From: a candidate division FCPU426 bacterium
GTDB lineage: Bacteria > Oederibacteriota > Muellerivitia > Muellerivitales > Muellerivitaceae
DNA length: 64,000 nucleotides
Assembly: GCA_963719085.1 (NCBI GenBank)
Contig: CAVRAL010000004.1
Coordinates: 192,001 to 256,000, forward strand
Direction: 5' to 3'
Positions 33,648 through 42,150 of this stretch are shown in pieces. Numbering within the stretch: position 1 is the stretch's first letter; each line of letters begins with the position of its first letter. Position numbers and translations under genes: made by a program. The notes beneath the pieces are model-generated. The model did not search any database and was not told the origin of the DNA. It saw only the letters and a program-made list of their open reading frames with translations.

Positions 33648-34610
33648 TTATCCCCAGGGTAGCGGAAAAAGGCATAAGGCCAAAGTCGCGAAAGCCGCGG
33701 CCGCGCCTAAAAACCCCTCAACTCCGTACCACCAATTGTAAGATGGGTTTTGAAATTGAACGGGCTTCAACCAAAGGCCCAGAAAAAAGCCGGTCAAAAA
33801 TCCGCCCACATGGGCGATGTTGTTGGCCCCGATAAAAAAACCAAACATCACCGTATAAACCGCCCACTTGACCATTTGATCTCGGACCGCCCGGCCCAAA
33901 CCCGAGCCGTCTTTATGTCCCCAGCCGCCGGCCAAACCGATCAGTCCCATCAGGGCGCCGGAAGCGCCGATGGAAACCACGTTGCCGCCGAAGCATTGGT
34001 ATCCCACATTGGCCAAGACGCCGGTCACCATGAAATAAAAAAGCATGCGCCGTTTCCCGAAAATTTGCTCCACCCAAGGCCCGATCTGAAGCAGGGCCAT
34101 GACGTTGAAGGCGATATGAAAAAGGCCCGCGTGTAGGAAAACCGCGGTGAACAGCCGCCACCACTCACCCTGGGCCACGAAGGGCGGATAATGCGCCCCG
34201 AACCGGACCAGCCCCTCCGCGGTAAAAGAAAGAAGCGTGCCGGTGCCGGGAGTGAGGAGCATGCGGATATAGATAAGAAGAAGGGCGAAGGCGATCAGCG
34301 AACTGGCGGATTCAAAATGAGGGAACCGCAAACCCAACCGCCGCACGATTTCAATCCAACGGGGCGAGAGCGAGCGGCCGCAGGCCACACAGCTGGAGCG
34401 GCCTTGATCTTGGAGCGTGCCGCAATAGGGACAAATTTTATGGGCGTAACGCACGTGTTCCACCGTGGTTTGGGCCTGGTTCTTTTGGCGGCGGGCCGAT
34501 TCCCGCCAAGCCATCAATTTCCAGCGGGTGCGGACCGGGTTCATTCCGATCCAGCCCGAAAGTTTGGCTAATATTTCAATCCAGTCCAAAGGCGTTCGCG
34601 GGTCGGTCAT
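33648..34610 (-). CDS. Rhomboid intramembrane serine protease with N-terminal zinc ribbon
   Basis: WWRL, FLH..LFHIAFN, GASG and AHVGG, plus CPYCG/CVACG. Confidence 0.92.
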   Translation of the reverse strand: MTDPRTPLDWIEILAKLSGWIGMNPVRTRWKLMAWRESARRQKNQAQTTVEHVRYAHKICPYCGTLQDQGRSSCVACGRSLSPRWIEIVRRLGLRFPHFESASSLIAFALLLIYIRMLLTPGTGTLLSFTAEGLVRFGAHYPPFVAQGEWWRLFTAVFLHAGLFHIAFNVMALLQIGPWVEQIFGKRRMLFYFMVTGVLANVGYQCFGGNVVSIGASGALMGLIGLAGGWGHKDGSGLGRAVRDQMVKWAVYTVMFGFFIGANNIAHVGGFLTGFFLGLWLKPVQFQNPSYNWWYGVEGFLGAAAAFATLALCLFPLPWG

Positions 34611-34704
34611 GGCACCAAGCTAAACGAAAATGGCGGCGTTTTCCACGTTTCCTTGCTTTTAACCCAACCGGGTTTGAAAAAGAAAGAACTTCTTTTTCCG
34701 TCTT

Positions 34705-35172
34705 TCAGCGGGCCTTGCGCCCGATGATTTTCCGGCCTACCAAAATATGCAAAATCAAAAGAAAAGGCAAAGCCAGCCCGATGATCCAATGGGCCAGGCT
34801 GGTGATTTTTCTTAAATTCTCATCGCCGAAATAATAAAGACCCCAGCCGGTCAGAACCAGAAAAAACGCGACGGATAAGAGGCTCAGACCCAGGACCCGG
34901 TTGCGTTTGAGCAATAGTCCCCGGCGCACATGGACCAGAAGCGAACCGAGGAACCACAAAAAGACGAAAGCCAGGGCCCCATGGATTTCCATCAGAATCG
35001 GCGACCACTTTTCACAGGCGTCGCTCGAGGCCGGAGAATCGGAAAAACCCCGGATCATCAGCCACAACAATCCGGAGAACCAAATGAGGAAAACCACGGC
35101 GTAAAAGGCGCGCCGGTGCGGCGTTTCCAAGCGGACCTTCTCGCGGAATTCCAAATGGGACGACCCGCTCAT
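34705..35172 (-). CDS. Four-TM membrane protein with four His; putative di-heme cytochrome b (DUF4405-like)
   Basis: His in EIHG, VHVRR, LAHW and ILHI, paired on TM2 and TM4. ATGA-type coupling to apbE. Confidence 0.75.
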   Translation of the reverse strand: MSGSSHLEFREKVRLETPHRRAFYAVVFLIWFSGLLWLMIRGFSDSPASSDACEKWSPILMEIHGALAFVFLWFLGSLLVHVRRGLLLKRNRVLGLSLLSVAFFLVLTGWGLYYFGDENLRKITSLAHWIIGLALPFLLILHILVGRKIIGRKAR

Positions 35173-36107
35173 AGGCCCGGCTTGGTCAAACGGGAAAGCG
35201 GCGCGGATAAATTCCCCCCGTTCCAATCCCGGAACCCTTGATCGTCCACCGCCATATAGGCCGCGGCGTTGAAATGGTCCAATGTCTTTTGGGCGACTAT
35301 CGCCGGCCCCAACAGCACCACCTTGGTCAAGGCGTCCGCCAACGCGCATTGGCCGGCCGCCACCGTGACCCCCGGAAAAACTTTCCGCAAGCGGCCGCTT
35401 CCCGGTTTCACGATCGGCGTCGCGGGGCCTTCCTGGGATTCCCGCTGGGCTTCCCGGCCGCCCGAGGAGGCGAAGGCGCCTTCTTTGGATAAGCCCTTGG
35501 GCCAGAAACGGTCCGGTTGAAAAGGATCCCGAAGCCAAATTTCCTGGGGCTTGCGAGTCTTGATCCGAAGATCGCCCCCGGCGTTGATGACCACATCGCT
35601 CACGCCGTCTATTTCAAGCGCCGCTTCCATCGCGCGGTCCACGGCGTAGCCCTTGGCGATTCCGCCCAGGTCCACCCGGCAAGGACGCCTTAGGACCAAT
35701 CGTGAGTCGGGCAAAAGCTCAATATCGGTGTACCGGGCCCGGGTGAAATAACCATCGCCCGAATGAAATCCCGCCGGGGACAAAAATCCTTTTTGGGATA
35801 ATTTTCCGCCGACGGTCACGTCAAAAACGCCGCCCGAAAGCCAGGAAATTTTCTCGCCCAAGCTCAGCACGTCATAAATCCAAGGATCAACCGCCAGGGG
35901 CTGAAAAGCTTCTTGGCGGGCGATGCGCCCCACGTCGCTCGTTGGCTCATGCGCGCTCATCAAACGCTGGACCTTGGCGACGGCCTGAAAAGCCGCGTCA
36001 ATGGCTTGGTTGGAAATCTCCGGCGCCGGGCTTTTCACGGCCACGATCACCCAAGTTCCCAGTAAGGGCTTCGCCCTTTTAAGATAGGCGGTTTTTGATG
36101 GTTTCAT
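35169..36107 (-). CDS. apbE: FAD:protein FMN transferase ApbE
   Basis: LLGT.V, S...PTSD, G.FDVTVG, DLGGIAKGYAVD, NAGGD and ADALTK. Confidence 0.93.
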   Translation of the reverse strand: MKPSKTAYLKRAKPLLGTWVIVAVKSPAPEISNQAIDAAFQAVAKVQRLMSAHEPTSDVGRIARQEAFQPLAVDPWIYDVLSLGEKISWLSGGVFDVTVGGKLSQKGFLSPAGFHSGDGYFTRARYTDIELLPDSRLVLRRPCRVDLGGIAKGYAVDRAMEAALEIDGVSDVVINAGGDLRIKTRKPQEIWLRDPFQPDRFWPKGLSKEGAFASSGGREAQRESQEGPATPIVKPGSGRLRKVFPGVTVAAGQCALADALTKVVLLGPAIVAQKTLDHFNAAAYMAVDDQGFRDWNGGNLSAPLSRLTKPGL

Positions 36108-36609
36108 AAGTCTCGATCAACCTTTTCACCCCGCGGGTCACGTGGGTGGAGGAGAGGGTCGCCCCGCTGTAATTTTTGATGTCCTTGCCGACCGTCAATG
36201 GATCGCCCGCGCCCTTGCCCGTAAATTGCGCCCGCCAGGACTTTTCCATCACTTGTTTGCCGAAAGTTTCTTTGTATTCCAAAATTTCAACATCTTTGAC
36301 CTTGCCATCCGCCGTCAAACCAAGGGCATAGGTGATGAAATCGTGTTTGCCCACGACTTGATCCACGAACATCCATCCGCCACCGGACAGGCTCCACAGC
36401 CGGAGGTTTTTATCATCCACGGGTTCGCCCGAACCTTTTTGAATCTGGTCCACTTCCCCCTGGGTCAAGGTGACCGGCAAGGCCGCCGCCTTTTCTCCCG
36501 GGAACATCAGCGCCAAAGTCTGGTCGGCCGTCAAATAGACTTCCGCGTGGGCCACTTGGACCGCCGCCGGCGCGCTGAGCGCGGTCAACCAAAGGTATGA
36601 TTTTTTCAT
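36079..36609 (-). CDS. Secreted FMN-binding (flavinylated) protein
   Basis: Signal peptide, EILEYKE..G, WRAQFTGK and the flavinylation motif SGATLSS. Confidence 0.9.
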   Translation of the reverse strand: MKKSYLWLTALSAPAAVQVAHAEVYLTADQTLALMFPGEKAAALPVTLTQGEVDQIQKGSGEPVDDKNLRLWSLSGGGWMFVDQVVGKHDFITYALGLTADGKVKDVEILEYKETFGKQVMEKSWRAQFTGKGAGDPLTVGKDIKNYSGATLSSTHVTRGVKRLIETYETIKNRLS

Positions 36610-36676
36610 TCGAACAACTCCCAAACAAATTAGGCCGCCGGCGCGGTTTTAAGCCGTGCCGGCAAACCATCCAACC

Positions 36677-37618
36677 TTACATCGGAATCCCAAGCTTCAA
36701 TGTGGTGATTAAATCCTCATGCGAGCGTAAAAATTCCCCGTTGCCGATGAACACGCCGCTCTCATCGATTCCATTCGGAACCCCATAAACTTGTTTCAAC
36801 ACGCCCAAGGTCAGCCAAAAGCCTTCCCCGCCATAATGCACATCCGGCCCCACCCAAAAAACAGAATGTTCCAGATGCCAAAAATCGCCGTATTCATTGT
36901 GGTTATGCATTTCCAACCCGGCGAAAAAATCCGGCGCGAAACGATAGCTGATTCCAAAGTCATTATTGAAGTCCAACTCACCCTGCCAGCCTTGCACATC
37001 CGTATCGGGACCCGCTTGATTCCGAGCGATATCCCCGAAGCGAAGGAACTCAAATTCAGCCGTGGCGTTATAAGCCAAGACCAACTTGTCCTCGAGGAAA
37101 TTCTTTTGAATGAGGACTTTATACTCCGTCTCCGACGAAGGGGCGTAAGGAAGCCCGTTGTGCATGTCCGTGAAGTCAATTTCCGGCTCCATATAAAGGG
37201 CCACACCGACGCCGTCCTGGTAAGGGCTGAAAAGACGATAGACCAGCTCAAACGAAAGGCTTTGCAGAAAGGTGGCGTGATTGGTGAAGGTCGGGGTTCC
37301 CGGAACCACGTCCCCGTCGCCGCCCAGGGCGTCGTCATCCAAGGTGTTCACCGCGTCCAGATGCTCGGTATTGATGTAAAAAGCTCCCTGGAAGTTATCC
37401 GTGATGCCGTATTCCAGCTCGGTGCTGAAATCCCAAGCCGAATAACTGCCTGAAGCCCGTCCGTTTCGGTTGCGGATGAGCTGCTCAAACTCAAAATGGC
37501 CCGCCGGGGTGGTGTCCGTGGTGTAGGTATAACTGAACAAACCTTCCCCCGCCGCCGCCGGCAAAACCGATCCCGCTAAAAACAAAACCGCGTACAAAAC
37601 TTTTGAAAACCGTTTCAT
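36677..37618 (-). CDS. DUF6662-like outer-membrane beta-barrel protein, paralog 2
   Basis: Signal peptide, GEGLFSYTYTTDT.P.G..EFEQ, ELEYGITD, DGVGVALYMEP, IQKNFLEDKL and GPDVHYGG. Confidence 0.8.
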   Translation of the reverse strand: MKRFSKVLYAVLFLAGSVLPAAAGEGLFSYTYTTDTTPAGHFEFEQLIRNRNGRASGSYSAWDFSTELEYGITDNFQGAFYINTEHLDAVNTLDDDALGGDGDVVPGTPTFTNHATFLQSLSFELVYRLFSPYQDGVGVALYMEPEIDFTDMHNGLPYAPSSETEYKVLIQKNFLEDKLVLAYNATAEFEFLRFGDIARNQAGPDTDVQGWQGELDFNNDFGISYRFAPDFFAGLEMHNHNEYGDFWHLEHSVFWVGPDVHYGGEGFWLTLGVLKQVYGVPNGIDESGVFIGNGEFLRSHEDLITTLKLGIPM

Positions 37619-37770
37619 CCTCATTCCTCGTTTCATCTGAAATTAAAATCGAGGGTTTTAAACGGCCTGAGGACGAAAAGTCCCTGAAGCCTCCCGTCCT
37701 TGGCCCGGGCATGGAAACCATGAACCCGATTCAAAACCGCCCGCTCGCGTCAATGCTTTTAAATTAAATG

Positions 37771-37796
37771 GGCTGGCTTCCCTAGGGGTGGCTGGC
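37771..37796 (-). promoter_or_regulatory. CCAGCC-hairpin-GCCAGCC leader motif (putative HmuP/HemP-responsive element), copy 2
   Basis: Minus strand GCCAGCCACCCCTAGGGAAGCCAGCC, matching 39040-39066. Confidence 0.55.
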
Positions 37797-37823
37797 TTTT
37801 ATCCGCATCCATCAAACAAAAAC

Positions 37824-38192
37824 TTAATCGGCCGCGCCGTCCTTTTTAAGGGTCGAGGCCAGCAGATAGTGAAGAATGGAGTCTTTTGTCATGTCATCGA
37901 TCTTGGCTTTTTTTTGCATCTTCACCATGACCTTTTGCCATTCGTCCGGCGAAAGCTCCGAAGCGTCATGCAGATCATGGCAGGCCGCGCAATTTTGGAC
38001 ATAGGCGGTCCGGCCTTGCTGTAAATCAGCCAGGGTCGTCCCGGGCCATTGGCTATCCGCCCGGGAAACCGTCGTTGAGTCCGGAATCGGAACCCCGCCT
38101 CCGGTCGTGGCGCAGCCCAGGGGCAGGGCCCCCAGGGTTAACAGCGCCCCCAGACGCCAAGCCTGGTTGAGTTTTGTCCGGAGATTTTTCAT
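37824..38192 (-). CDS. Monoheme c-type cytochrome lipoprotein
   Basis: Lipobox LPLG-C, heme motif CAACH, and W..VMVKM supplying a candidate axial Met. Confidence 0.88.
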   Translation of the reverse strand: MKNLRTKLNQAWRLGALLTLGALPLGCATTGGGVPIPDSTTVSRADSQWPGTTLADLQQGRTAYVQNCAACHDLHDASELSPDEWQKVMVKMQKKAKIDDMTKDSILHYLLASTLKKDGAAD

Positions 38193-38210
38193 CGGGGTTC
38201 CTTTCGTCGT

Positions 38211-38987
38211 CTAGAGGCTGAAGGACGTGGCCACGCGGATCTGATCCTTTTGGCTGTCCGTCAGGTCCAGGCTTGAGCTTCCGAAGCTGGCCAACTGCGG
38301 CAGGAAGGTCAAAGCGACCCACCAGTTGCTGCCCGAGTATTCAACCACAGGCCCCAAGGAGAAGACCGACCGCATGGGGTCCTTGTCGTAAAAGTTCTCA
38401 TCCATGGACTCAATCCCGACGAAGAACTTGTCCGAAAGGAAGTATCCCAATCCAACGGAAGGGCGCAGCAAGAAGGAGCTGTCCGTATCGGCGTAATCAA
38501 AGGCCGGTTCGCCCAAAAGATTGAAGGTGGCTAAAAAGTTGCCCATTTTTTTATCGATGATCACCTTCATCTCAAGCTCGAAATCATCCGGCTCGAATTC
38601 CGGCTCCACATAAAGACCCAGCCCCACGCCGTCCGCCACCGCGTCGGTGAGCTTGAATTTCCACTCATTGGAAATCCCATCCAGCGAGGGTCCGTGATTG
38701 ATCACTCCGTCGCTGGGATCTTGGCCCAACTCCTGGGTGAAGTTTAAATAAAGCGAAGTCTGCACGCCGCCGCCCAATCCCGTCTCAAACTCCAGGTTAT
38801 AGTCCAGGGCCGAATAAAAGCTCGCCTGGCCGAATCGATAGGTGGAATAGGTCTCGATTTCCCGCTCCCCCTCGCCCAACACGCCCGACTCATAGTTATA
38901 AATAAAATGACGGTCGCCGGCCTGGGCCAAGGCGGGCATCCCCAACAACAAGGCTCCCAGCAAAAAACGCTTGAATCGGCTCTTCAT
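38211..38987 (-). CDS. DUF6662-like outer-membrane beta-barrel protein, paralog 1
   Basis: Signal peptide, F.YNYE..VL..GE.E.E, EFETGL, SNEWKFKLTDAVADGVGLGLYVE and terminal beta-strand RVATSFSL. Confidence 0.78.
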   Translation of the reverse strand: MKSRFKRFLLGALLLGMPALAQAGDRHFIYNYESGVLGEGEREIETYSTYRFGQASFYSALDYNLEFETGLGGGVQTSLYLNFTQELGQDPSDGVINHGPSLDGISNEWKFKLTDAVADGVGLGLYVEPEFEPDDFELEMKVIIDKKMGNFLATFNLLGEPAFDYADTDSSFLLRPSVGLGYFLSDKFFVGIESMDENFYDKDPMRSVFSLGPVVEYSGSNWWVALTFLPQLASFGSSSLDLTDSQKDQIRVATSFSL

Positions 38988-39039
38988 TGAAAATCTCCTT
39001 TAAAGTTTGGTCGCGTCCCAACAACGATCAACGGTTCCT

Positions 39040-39066
39040 GGCTGGCGACCCAAAGGGGCTGGCTGG
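39040..39066 (-). promoter_or_regulatory. CCAGCC-hairpin-GCCAGCC leader motif (putative HmuP/HemP-responsive element), copy 1
   Basis: Minus strand CCAGCCAGCCCCTTTGGGTCGCCAGCC, directly after the hemP stop codon. Confidence 0.6.
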
Positions 39067-39070
39067 AGTC

Positions 39071-39250
39071 CTACTTGGTCAATATCAATTTTCCGCTCTT
39101 GGTGATCCGCAGCCGGTAGTTTTCCGGGCCATGGGCGATCCAAATCTCGGTTTCGCCCGCGGGAAACAAATCCTCACTTTTCAGGGTCCGCGGATGCCGA
39201 GATGACTCTTTTTTCAAAGGCATCCCTTCGGGGGCTTCATCGGCTTTCAC
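39071..39250 (-). CDS. hemP: Hemin uptake regulator HemP/HmuP (59 aa; absent from the ORF track)
   Basis: Translated by hand: ..LKSEDLFPAGETEIWIAHGPENYRLRITKSGKLILTK*, with the HemP signature YRLR.T..GKLILTK. GTG at 39250 follows GGAAGGA; ATG at 39223 is an alternative. Confidence 0.92.
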   Translation of the reverse strand: MKADEAPEGMPLKKESSRHPRTLKSEDLFPAGETEIWIAHGPENYRLRITKSGKLILTK

Positions 39251-39281
39251 GCGTTTCCTTCCACAAGACCGGAGGCTTTCT

Positions 39282-39322
39282 GATATTGAAAATCATTATC
39301 ATTATCAATTGGAACTTGTCAA
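39282..39322 (-). promoter_or_regulatory. Fur box overlapping a sigma70 promoter
   Basis: GATATTGAAAATCATTATC (39282-39300) matches 17/19 of GATAATGATAATCATTATC, with an extra adjacent hexamer. Minus strand reads TTGACA-16 nt-GATAAT. Confidence 0.88.
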
Positions 39323-39344
39323 CCGCTTTTATCCGCCCCGAAAC

Positions 39345-39375
39345 AAAAAAAGCCGCCCCCTTTGGGGACGGCTTT
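39345..39375 (-). terminator. Rho-independent terminator after the LysM gene
   Basis: Minus strand AAAGCCGTCCCC-AAA-GGGGGCGGC-TTTTTTT. Confidence 0.85.
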
Positions 39376-39416
39376 GAAACCTTCTTAAAGGGTCAAATCA
39401 CTGCGCCCCATCCGCC

Positions 39417-39821
39417 TTAAAAGTAATCCAAGGGCAAAGTCGCCCGGGGTTGGCTATGGGATTTAAACTTCGGGGTCTTACTGCTCAAATCACGGGCATG
39501 GGATTTTTCCGAATCCGAAACGCCCTTGTCCACCTTCAAAACTTGCTCCGTCGAGATCAAATCCGGGTCCTGGATCGTATCCCGGTTGGCCTTAAAAAGC
39601 AGGGGCCACTCGTAAGGATCGCCGTAAATTTTCGACATCCCGGAAATCGACCAAAGCGTATCCCCCTTACGGACCGTGTAGCTGTCCGAAGGCACCGGGG
39701 TCGGAGCCGCGGCGGCCGGGGCGTCGGTTCCCTCGATGCGTTTATTGCTCGAGCATCCGACATTGAGACCCACACCGGCGAACAAAGCCAAAAGAATGGC
39801 CGACTTTAAAAAATTTTTCAT
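39417..39821 (-). CDS. LysM peptidoglycan-binding lipoprotein
   Basis: Lipobox NVG-C, and YTVRKGDTLWSIS...YGDPYEWPLLFKANRD.I.DPDLI. Confidence 0.92.
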   Translation of the reverse strand: MKNFLKSAILLALFAGVGLNVGCSSNKRIEGTDAPAAAAPTPVPSDSYTVRKGDTLWSISGMSKIYGDPYEWPLLFKANRDTIQDPDLISTEQVLKVDKGVSDSEKSHARDLSSKTPKFKSHSQPRATLPLDYF

Positions 39822-39888
39822 TTGTTTTTCCTTTCTAAAATTAAATTTTAAACCTCAAGTGACGCCTTTACCGCGGAGGGAAAAACGC

Positions 39889-40221
39889 TCAGATTCTAAG
39901 AACAGGAGGACGCGATAACCCCGGAGTCTCATTCACCGGTTGATTAAAAGAAGTTCTCAGGCTCGGGCCAAAGGCCGTTTTGGAGATTTCAACCCTCAAA
40001 AGAGCGTCCACGGTCGAATCGGTTTCCATTTTATCCATCCGGGAAGAAGCAGCGGAGGGGCGGACGGGAACCCCCAAGGTCGATGAGGCGGTTTTCGGAT
40101 TGACCAGCGTGGGATGAACCAAGGATTCCATACCGGCAAAACCCATGACCGGTTTCAGGACTAGGGCGAAGGCGATCAGGAGCAAGAACAAAAGGCTGGT
40201 TTTTCCGGAAGATCTCTTCAT
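39889..40221 (-). CDS. Hypothetical exported protein
   Basis: Signal-like N-terminus; the ORF fills the gap and ends in RPPVLRI. Confidence 0.55.
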   Translation of the reverse strand: MKRSSGKTSLLFLLLIAFALVLKPVMGFAGMESLVHPTLVNPKTASSTLGVPVRPSAASSRMDKMETDSTVDALLRVEISKTAFGPSLRTSFNQPVNETPGLSRPPVLRI

Positions 40222-40663: not shown

Positions 40664-40841
40664 GGGTGTCTCCAAAGTGGCGTGGATCGGCATTAGCTTC
40701 TATCTATAAGTGTTGAATCGGGGAACTTTATTCCAATAAATCCCAGGAAATAACCCCGCTTGCCCAGGCTTCCCTTCCTTTTTACGGCTCGGTTTCGGAT
40801 AATTCATGCCGATCAAAATCGAAGGTCAAGGAACCAAACAA

Positions 40842-42150
40842 ATGAGCCAAAGACGCGTCGTCGTCACCGGGCTGGGAACCGTCAATCCTTTGGGCCAGGG
40901 TGTGGAACAAACTTGGAAAGCCGCCCTCGCCGGAAAAAGCGGAACCGGAATCATCAGCTTATTTGACGTGAAAGACTGCCCCGTCAAGATCGCCGCTGAG
41001 GTCAAGGACTTTGAGCCGACCCAAACCCTGGCGGCCCCCATTACGGGGATCGCCGGCCGGGACCCCCTCACCCAAGCGGTTCACCCCAAAGACGTGAAAC
41101 GGTTCGGCCGCTTCACCCACCTGGGCGTTCTCGCCGGGCTTCAAGCTTATTTGGACTCGGGATTAGACCAAACCCGGGGGGCCTTCAACGACGAGCTTTT
41201 AGGCGTCAACATCGGCGTGGGCCAGGGCGGCCTGCCCGAAATCCAAGCCGTCCATGACGACTATCTGGCCAAGGGTTTCCGCCGAATCACCCCCTTTTTC
41301 ATCCTTCAATCCATCACCAACATCGTGTCGGGGCAGACTGAGCGTTCTTTTAAGCTTGAAGGGCCCCAACCATTGCAACGTGACGGCCTGCGCTACCAGC
41401 GCCCATTCCATCGGGGAATCCATGCGGGTCATCCAGCGGGGGGAAGCCGATGTCATGTTGGCGGGCGGGGCCGAAGCGGTCATTTGTGAGTTAGGGATCG
41501 GCGGATTTGCCGCCATGAAGGCCTTGTCCGACCGGAACGATTCCCCCGAAAAGGCGTCCCGGCCCTTTGATAAGGACCGCAACGGATTCATCATGGGCGA
41601 AGGCGCCACGGTTTTGGTTTTGGAAGAATACGAAAGGGCCAAATCCCGGGGCGCCAAAATTTACGGGGAATTACTCGGCTACGGGGCCAGCGCCGACGGT
41701 TATCACTTGACCCATCCGCCCGAAGGCGCCGAAGGCGCGGGTCGGGCCATGGTGTCCGCCCTAAAAGAAGCCAAGCTGAATCCCGATCAAATCGATTACG
41801 TGAACGCCCACGCCACCTCGACCCCCGCCGGGGATGTGGAGGAGGCCAAGGCCATCAGCCGCATTTTGAATCCCCACCGCGCCAAGCCGGTTTTTGTTTC
41901 CTCGACCAAATCCATGACGGGCCATATGTTGGGCGCCGCCGGGGCCACCGAGGCCCTGCTTTCGCTCTTGGCCTTGAGGGACAACAAAGTTCCCCCCACG
42001 ATTAACCTGGAAAACCTGGACCCGGCCTGCGTCCACCCCAATTTGAATATCGTGGCCAACGCCACCGTGGAAGCGCCGCTGAAATACGCGCTTTCCAACA
42101 GCTTTGGTTTTGGCGGAACGAATGGCTGCTTGGTTTTCGGAAAAATTTAA
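40842..42150 (+). pseudogene. fabF: beta-ketoacyl-ACP synthase II with a +1 frameshift at ~41337 (or a sequencing error)
   Basis: RRVVVTGLG N-half is in one frame; TACATSAH, NAHATST and SSTKSMTGH are in another. Deleting A41337 restores SGQLSVLL. Confidence 0.88.

Follow-up and report, generated by a model that had tools for sequence, protein, structure and literature searches.

The 64,000-nucleotide (nt) stretch of contig CAVRAL010000004.1 analysed here (the window; contig positions 192,001 to 256,000, from a candidate division FCPU426 bacterium) contains, entirely on its minus strand, a predicted operon of seven co-oriented genes: hemP, a first β-barrel gene (barrel 1), a cytochrome c lipoprotein gene, a second barrel gene (barrel 2), a gene for an FMN_bind protein, apbE, and a gene for a protein with four predicted transmembrane helices (the 4-TM gene). 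The initial annotation, made from the letters alone, had reported this gene set and its orientation together with a 17/19 Fur box and a TTGACA promoter, and every one of these elements was recovered where it had been placed on the minus strand. The features, in window coordinates as used throughout unless a locus is named, are as follows, with signal peptides read by eye.

39295-39322, minus strand: sigma-70-type promoter, with TTGACA at 39322-39317, a 16-nt spacer and GATAAT at 39300-39295
39282-39306, minus strand: Fur box, two overlapping 19-mer registers of 17/19 each, over the -10 hexamer
39071-39250, minus strand: hemP/hmuP-family gene, 59 amino acids (aa), GTG start, GGAAGGA ribosome-binding site
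38211-38987, minus strand: barrel 1, 258 aa, signal peptide ...ALAQA/GDRHF, DUF6662 heme-partnered clade
37824-38192, minus strand: monoheme c-type cytochrome lipoprotein, 122 aa, lipobox LPLGC with Cys27, CAACH at residues 68-72
36677-37618, minus strand: barrel 2, 313 aa, alternative start at 37636, DUF6662 flavin-partnered clade
36079-36609, minus strand: exported FMN_bind protein (FMN, flavin mononucleotide), 176 aa, signal peptide ...VAHA/EVY, site NYSGATLSS
35169-36107, minus strand: ApbE-family FAD:protein FMN transferase (FAD, flavin adenine dinucleotide), 312 aa, without signal peptide
34705-35172, minus strand: four-helix inner-membrane protein, putative diheme cytochrome b, 155 aa
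39349-39375, minus strand: intrinsic terminator of the upstream LysM lipoprotein gene, a 12-bp stem (8 of the pairs G-C) and a T run after it
39821-39417, minus strand: upstream LysM domain gene (Pfam)

The promoter fits 11/12 consensus positions and is the top promoter-like site within 34300-39900; the LysM-gene terminator, just ahead of it, is the 5' boundary of the operon. Four matches to the Fur consensus with at most three mismatches occur in the window, all at this promoter, where shuffled sequences give an expectation of 0.02. Across the 3.04-Mb genome, which encodes two Fur-family genes, the operon's Fur box is the best consensus match and supplies two of the only four scan positions at that threshold. 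Junctions between the operon genes are tight or overlapping: the overlaps claimed among the last three genes measure 29 nt (FMN_bind/ApbE) and 4 nt (ApbE stop/4-TM start, ATGA), and the terminator scan found no minus-strand terminator in the hemP-barrel 1 interval. A spacer of 187-205 nt (37637-37823, minus strand) lies between the cytochrome c and barrel 2 genes. Pfam searches identified HemP, DUF6662, FMN_bind and ApbE in the expected genes, with HemP (PF10636) at 53 bits against a cut-off of 25 (E 3e-14), while none of the seven proteins matched an NCBIfam model at its cut-off. As had been claimed, no TonB receptor or heme oxygenase came up in domain scans, nor did an iron ATP-binding cassette (ABC) transporter, the rest of the window holding housekeeping genes.

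Comparison across genomes indicates that the operon is composed of two modules, module A (hemP, barrel 1 and cytochrome c) and module B (barrel 2, FMN_bind, ApbE and the 4-TM protein), which are separate in most genomes and joined only in this genus; the cytochrome c-barrel 2 spacer is their seam. The initial annotation had drawn the locus as a single electron path, the parts of which are indeed all present, but they do not form one indivisible chain.

In module A, the heme protein reaches 24.3 bits with the Pfam family DHC (vs 22.2) and stays below threshold with Cytochrome_CBB3. Homologs of this cytochrome c are found in 18/98 other genomes of the phylum, including 13/30 of the window's own family. 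The barrel 1 gene stands directly upstream of the cytochrome c gene in 17/18 of these genomes, the eighteenth being cut by the contig start (the locus in genome G001 is ambiguous), and in three genomes (loci L128, L129 and L133) the two are fused into a single open reading frame (ORF) that runs from a full-length barrel 1 domain through a short linker to a CxxCH domain. These natural fusions support the proposed link between heme c and barrel. All stand-alone cytochrome c homologs carry lipoboxes and the remainder are the C-terminal fusions to barrel 1, which together place the heme domain at the periplasmic face of the barrel, either lipid-tethered or fused. A scan of metagenomes added 43 further loci, and a CxxCH ORF adjoins the barrel in 11/11 close metagenome relatives with at least 279 nt of downstream sequence. 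In L139, L140, L141 and L146, the gene after the barrel encodes a CxxCH protein of 146-152 aa that the window cytochrome c query missed; the two that were scanned (L139:6792-7232 and L141:6771-7229) are Haem_bd proteins (PF14376, Pfam). We read the presence of Haem_bd in this barrel 1 sub-clade as the replacement of one heme partner by a non-homologous one. In 27/57 loci, Fur-like boxes immediately precede barrel 1 or its hemP; these make up 28/33 clusters, and many have zero or one mismatch in the 19-mer. An Nramp gene is found directly 3' of the cytochrome c gene in L119 and L153, and a cytochrome c-FTR1 fusion gene lies directly 5' of barrel 1 in L131 and nearby in L132, there along with a DtxR-type repressor.

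Module B was surveyed in species-representative genomes, from which 168 barrel 2 relatives were collected and 80 loci kept. Barrel, FMN_bind, ApbE and 4-TM genes retain their order and strand in 67/80 loci; of the others, nine run into a contig end, three contain only the barrel and one is without ApbE. The carriers span Alpha-, Beta- and Gammaproteobacteria, Acidobacteriota, Verrucomicrobiota, Omnitrophota, Bdellovibrionota, Myxococcota and others, among them cultivable genera such as Methylobacterium, Variovorax, Sphingobium, Bradyrhizobium and Nitrospirillum. Clustering of the flanking ORFs revealed no widely common family outside the four genes, and our literature searches found no publication describing this cassette. 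The complete seven-gene layout was found elsewhere only in a same-genus genome, with protein identities of 59-81%. Since the flavin cassette is present in only 2/30 genomes of the window's own family, and the nearest relatives of barrel 2 come from other phyla, module B appears to be an acquisition that was linked to a module A already present.

The two barrels are paralogs, as had been claimed (29% identity, E 2e-20), and both belong to DUF6662 (PF20367, cut-off 27 bits), barrel 2 with 61.7 bits over profile positions 6-277 and barrel 1 with 32.6 bits over positions 214-278 only. More than 100 barrel 2 homologs exist, annotated merely as DUF6662 or hypothetical, and no published mention of DUF6662 turned up in our literature search. 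Statements on the fold rest on the AlphaFold2 model of barrel 2, which has 12 strands (mean predicted local distance difference test, pLDDT, 84.7; predicted template modelling score, pTM, 0.81). Its top Foldseek matches are the 12-strand barrels FapF (E 3e-10, TM-score 0.6-0.69), the COG4313 channel and NanC, a result consistent with the earlier view of these proteins as outer-membrane-type barrels. Neither window barrel matches the TonB-dependent families PF07715 and PF00593 (Pfam), and the seven TonB receptors of the genome lie elsewhere. Invariant residues in the barrel alignment include 20 Asp/Glu, 7 Arg/Lys and 5 His, and the alternation of residues along the strands suggests that these would face the lumen.

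In the barrel tree (130 sequences, quick IQ-TREE, with a midpoint root for drawing only and long branches flagged by the tool), flavin-partnered and heme-partnered barrels separate completely, with 74/74 of the former on one side and 30/30 of the latter on the other. The heme-partnered set comprises 24 barrels with a cytochrome c, three fused to one and three labelled Haem_bd; within the two sides there are also 20 unlabelled or short rows and six barrels without an adjacent redox gene. The core of each side is a branch with 99% support in the Shimodaira-Hasegawa-like approximate likelihood ratio test (SH-aLRT), and the three barrel-cytochrome c fusions form one clade. This clean split by partner implies that the type of partner is inherited with the barrel. 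No fused form of barrel 2 of at least 549 residues was found, and its near-length homologs reach 346 residues at most, so that no barrel-FMN_bind fusion exists among them. The conserved barrel-cytochrome pair behind near-perfect Fur boxes, the natural fusions and the partner-specific clades are new observations. As a separate matter, one barrel clade (L160, L162, L164, L168, L174 and L177) has no adjacent redox gene, several of its members lying next to accB/accC, MeaB or an HhH-GPD glycosylase gene; the sister loci L170-L172 have retained the cytochrome c.

The flavin part of module B consists of an FMN_bind protein (PF04205, 40.4 bits) and an ApbE protein (PF02424, 117.5 bits against a cut-off of 25.6, E 1e-33), the only members of their families in the genome, in which a genome search found neither Nqr nor Rnf. 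The flavinylation motif is strongly kept: across 74 cassette homologs, each position of S148-G149-A150-T151-L152-S153 shows at least 95% conservation, and a 22-sequence FMN_bind alignment has no variation at T151, L152 and S153 and next to none at S148, G149 and A150. The ApbE proteins of the cassette share an unusual start. In the window, an in-frame stop lies three codons 5' of the ApbE ATG, and the protein aligns only from position 42 of the E. coli ApbE model; no signal peptide or hydrophobic N-terminal stretch is present in it or in about 70 cassette homologs, all of which begin a few residues before the conserved RARPLLGT, within the 3' end of the FMN_bind gene. The two genes overlap at this junction throughout (window 36079-36107; loci L011-L090), and in the examples examined the overlap measures 14-29 nt and has the form 3n+2. 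We considered export of ApbE as a fusion to FMN_bind, produced by a +1 frameshift at an A5 run in the 29-nt overlap, and rejected it as a general mechanism because the C-termini of the FMN_bind proteins, and hence the A5 run, are not conserved. No single-ORF FMN_bind-ApbE fusion was seen among the homologs and loci.

The last gene had been labelled DUF4405, and this label did not hold: the Pfam model (PF14358) gives no match to the 4-TM protein even at E≤10, and a six-frame genome search with it hit elsewhere only C4:463630-463818 (L179), within an unrelated 486-aa ORF. The nearest Atlas clusters nevertheless bear the automatic name 'putative DUF4405'. Four histidines, His64 and His81 in helix 2 and His128 and His142 in helix 4, are invariant in 58/58 homologs, and the model consists of four long helices (pLDDT 90.8). 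Read by the positive-inside rule, one pair (His64 and His128) would be close to the periplasm and the other (His81 and His142) close to the cytoplasm, as in a diheme wire. Ni_hydr_CYTB (PF01292) scores below threshold (24.2 vs 30.1 bits, E 3.2e-5). The Foldseek matches are cytochromes b of bc1, b6f, hydrogenase-1 and FdnI, none at E≤1e-3, and the best natural structures in a wide search are CybB (5oc0, Z 10.8 over 134 residues, root-mean-square deviation 3.4) and FdnI (1kqg_C, Z 10.3), scores to be read in light of Z values below about 13 being common for helical bundles. A search of PDB sequences with the 4-TM profile returned nothing meaningful. Modelled in this way, the last gene product looks like a diheme cytochrome b561-type bundle and not like Pfam DUF4405.

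The synteny survey supports the link to iron that the initial annotation had proposed: Fur-like boxes occur at the promoters of both modules elsewhere, and hemP, FTR1, FeoAB, Nramp, Fur and bacterioferritin genes recur as neighbours. For module B, 945 kb were scanned for Fur-like boxes with at most five mismatches to the E. coli consensus, and the promoter zones, reaching from 250 nt before to 40 nt past the start of the barrel or hemP gene, cover 2.7% of the DNA. Boxes occur in 18/80 loci, and 21/34 of the Fur-like clusters fall within promoter zones, an enrichment of about 59-fold, the significance of which is overstated by such figures because related loci are not independent. Several metagenome loci are identical to genome loci. 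Iron-gene neighbours were counted within 7 kb. FTR1 is found near nine module B loci, seven of them in Burkholderiales with the order hemP, FTR1, barrel, FMN_bind, ApbE, cytochrome b; FeoA-FeoB follows directly 3' of the cassette in one Omnitrophota locus; hemP is near 10 loci, bacterioferritin near six, a Fur gene near two and a TonB receptor near five (four by profile search, L046 by Pfam). Taken together, we regard the operon's link to iron as well supported by this comparative evidence.

Several further observations were made around these loci. Cytochrome c-FTR1 fusions of 640-760 aa stand beside both modules (L049:9935-11848, L056:1514-3511, L131:2786-5059 and L132:6811-8820), and in L049 the cassette and the fusion gene have a Fur-like box between them. 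In an Oligoflexia locus, a gene for a DyP-type peroxidase, which we take to be EfeB-like, is located directly 5' of the cassette (L015:5860-6879).

In the host genome, a 601-aa ORF outside the window (C4:393209-395014; L135:310-2115) fuses a ZIP-type transporter to Cu-oxidase_3 and Cu-oxidase_2 domains, and a 16/19 Fur-like box at C4:393026-393044 lies 165 nt ahead of it. As a genome search gave no match to FTR1, FeoB_C or Nramp, this ZIP-multicopper oxidase fusion may be the oxidase-coupled iron importer of the genome. FeoB itself was considered and set aside: the FeoB_N matches are generic GTPases (the one examined is IF-2).

From the gene content, conservation, pairing, fusions, Fur-box positions and fold predictions, we propose that the operon is probably a Fur-repressed, TonB-independent system of reductive iron acquisition; the direction of electron flow, the substrate, the quinol donor, the transfer from FMN to heme c and the co-transcription of the seven genes are what we infer from this pattern. 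When iron is scarce, Fur would leave the box over the -10 hexamer and allow the seven genes to be transcribed, with HemP, presumably a small iron-starvation regulator, made first. The putative diheme cytochrome b would take electrons from the quinol pool, carry them across the inner membrane and hand them to the periplasmic FMN_bind protein, whose FMN would be attached by ApbE to the threonine of the SGAT site. In this genus, the electrons could then pass on from FMN to heme c, module A setting a monoheme cytochrome c at the periplasmic mouth of barrel 1. The predicted 12-stranded barrels, rich in invariant Glu, Asp and His, would admit or bind ferric species, and flavin and heme c would reduce Fe(III) to Fe(II) at or behind them. 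Fe(II) would finally be imported by an inner-membrane carrier encoded elsewhere, for which the Fur-box-preceded ZIP-multicopper oxidase fusion is the candidate here and the FTR1, FeoAB or Nramp gene of the same cluster the candidate in other genomes. Going further, we raise only tentatively, as a generalization that may well fail, the idea that DUF6662 barrels represent a new class in which a minimal porin is combined with its own single-cofactor carrier (heme c or FMN), the two kinds being chained here into a quinol-b-FMN-heme c-Fe(III) wire independent of siderophores and TonB.

A number of observations, besides the non-independence of the loci, weigh against reductive iron acquisition. No iron gene lies within 7 kb in 61/80 module B loci, and only 18/80 have a Fur-like box. 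Genes linked to other metals also occur as neighbours, namely NicO/DUF1007, heavy-metal (HMA-type) P-type ATPases, a cation-efflux protein with a MerR regulator, and Nramp, and Nramp proteins also carry Mn. The operon encodes no inner-membrane iron importer of its own, and the genome in which the search for FTR1, FeoB_C and Nramp found no match is 99% complete. The spacer between the modules could house a second promoter. Finally, ApbE lacks an export signal while its substrate has a Sec-type signal peptide, which leaves the attachment of the flavin unexplained; FMN may be added to the FMN_bind precursor in the cytoplasm, ahead of Sec export, or ApbE may get to the periplasm along another route.

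The same parts could in principle work in the opposite direction, with Fe(II) entering via the barrels, heme c oxidising it, and the flavoprotein and cytochrome b serving as an electron sink to quinone, a scheme like that proposed for cytochrome c-FTR1 fusions and Cyc2. Such oxidative uptake would agree with the cytochrome c-FTR1 fusion genes that adjoin both modules (L049, L056, L131 and L132) and with the sole candidate importer in the genome, the ZIP-multicopper oxidase fusion, whose oxidase suggests oxidation-coupled transport; a precedent for Fe(II) oxidation by a cytochrome-porin is Cyc2, as described in passages of Keffer et al. (2021, PMC8406198). However, by general flavin chemistry, protein-bound FMN has a low midpoint potential and would be a poor acceptor of electrons from Fe(II), FeoAB and Nramp import Fe(II) without need for its oxidation, and neither the signature motif of Cyc2 nor its N-terminal domain order is present. 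We therefore consider the oxidative direction unlikely.

Another reading is that the genes form an envelope redox module with a different purpose and only a loose tie to iron, such as taking up or detoxifying another metal (Mn, Cu, Ni or Co), dissimilatory electron transfer to the outside of the cell, or repair in the periplasm. The other-metal neighbours listed above (NicO/DUF1007, HMA-type ATPases, the cation-efflux protein with MerR, and Nramp) and the 61/80 module B loci with no nearby iron gene would fit such a role. It is at odds with the enrichment of Fur-like boxes at module B promoters and their near-perfect form at module A promoters, and no respiratory reductase or multiheme cytochrome is present in any cluster scanned, which makes this purpose improbable in our estimate.

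A further possibility concerns transcription: the locus might be two adjacent independent operons without a joint function, the Fur promoter driving module A and a separate promoter in the spacer driving module B. The modules differ in phyletic pattern and are apart in nearly all genomes, and the spacer is long and holds a TTGACG hexamer. On the other hand, the scans flagged neither a terminator-like nor a promoter-like site on the minus strand of the spacer, the seven-gene layout is kept in the same-genus genome despite the divergence of its proteins, and joint control is plausible because both modules are Fur-linked elsewhere. We give independent transcription a low probability.

Least convincing is a heme system, in which the barrels would be TonB-independent heme channels and the redox proteins, under HemP, would process the iron of heme or reduce it: hemP does head this operon, nine other module B loci and several module A loci, and HemP-family proteins regulate heme receptors (PMC9131926), but the window and the related loci scanned contain neither a heme oxygenase nor a gene for a heme ABC transporter or a hemophore, the recurrent transporters (FTR1, FeoAB and Nramp) carry ionic iron, and hemP is not heme-specific, as the HemP homolog ChuP controls a siderophore receptor as well as a heme receptor (PMC9131926). 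Given this dual control by ChuP, a hemP gene at a non-heme iron locus is not contradictory.

Reductive iron acquisition also agrees with what is described for related systems, although the parts are combined differently. On genomic grounds, ApbE-flavinylated extracytosolic systems of the PepSY-like, MsrQ-like and P19/FTR1-associated types have been linked to iron assimilation, their co-location with ferrous-iron transporters being taken as a sign of assimilatory iron reduction (searched passages of Meheust et al., 2021, PMC8238504). The operon resembles these systems in having ApbE, an exported [S/T]GA[S/T] substrate and a His-bearing membrane cytochrome in one cluster. Unlike in the systems covered by those passages, its membrane component fits none of the five described classes (Pfam), a dedicated DUF6662 barrel is obligate, ApbE has no signal peptide, and hemP and a second barrel with heme c are added. 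Barrels are not mentioned in the searched passages of PMC8238504 or of Huang et al. (2024, PMC11334425). The latter passages report that ApbE-associated DUF4405 and FezC cytochromes bind heme b. The 4-TM gene shares with these flavinylation- or ferrosome-associated cytochromes its place beside apbE and its four conserved histidines, from which two b hemes are expected; unlike DUF4405, to which those passages assign six helices, the 4-TM protein has four predicted helices. Its best natural structural neighbours are instead the E. coli superoxide oxidase CybB (a cytochrome b561) and FdnI, with a family score that is sub-threshold.

The closest analogy for module A is Cyc2 (searched passages of PMC8406198), in which one CxxCH domain is likewise joined to an outer-membrane barrel, with the heme expected at the periplasmic mouth, and which also acts on iron. 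In Cyc2, the cytochrome is N-terminal on a 16-strand porin and carries the motif PXFAR[Q/K][T/Y]. By contrast, barrel 2 models with 12 strands, the cytochrome of module A is C-terminal when fused or else a separate lipoprotein, the motif is absent from the cytochrome and fusion sequences examined, and the context is one of Fur-regulated uptake and not of lithotrophy. MtrCAB and PioAB likewise combine an outer-membrane barrel with a periplasmic c-type cytochrome in iron redox chemistry, but do so, in the account of PMC8406198 as far as searched, with 26-strand barrels around decaheme cytochromes, as opposed to the 12 strands and single heme or flavin predicted here. As in HemP/HmuP/ChuP operons (PMC9131926), a small protein comes first in what is probably a Fur-repressed iron-acquisition operon; unlike in those, the genes behind hemP are barrel and redox genes or, in Burkholderiales loci, FTR1, and not those for a TonB receptor, a heme ABC transporter or a heme-degrading enzyme.

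Iron uptake in Gram-negative bacteria is usually ascribed to TonB-dependent receptors and Feo. If reductive iron acquisition by these operons is true, a widespread, Fur-controlled reduction of iron in the envelope, equipped with its own small barrels, would be a new entry route and would give DUF6662 its first function. The barrel-cytochrome c fusions are direct genomic evidence of a physical partnership between barrel and redox protein, and the split into heme- and flavin-partnered clades makes the barrel-redox idea testable in cultivable carriers. The leaderless ApbE, in turn, raises the question of where exported proteins become flavinylated.

Two observations concern the flanks of the operon. 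A gene for a rhomboid protease, the N-terminus of which weakly matches a zinc ribbon (33648-34610, minus strand), starts 95 nt past the cytochrome b stop; as no terminator was flagged between the two, it may be co-transcribed. On the other side, a ketoacyl-synthase-like gene (40806-42150, plus strand) is apparently split, by our reading of the translations, into two ORFs that overlap (40806-41489 and 41254-42150), an arrangement pointing to a frameshift or to an error in sequencing.

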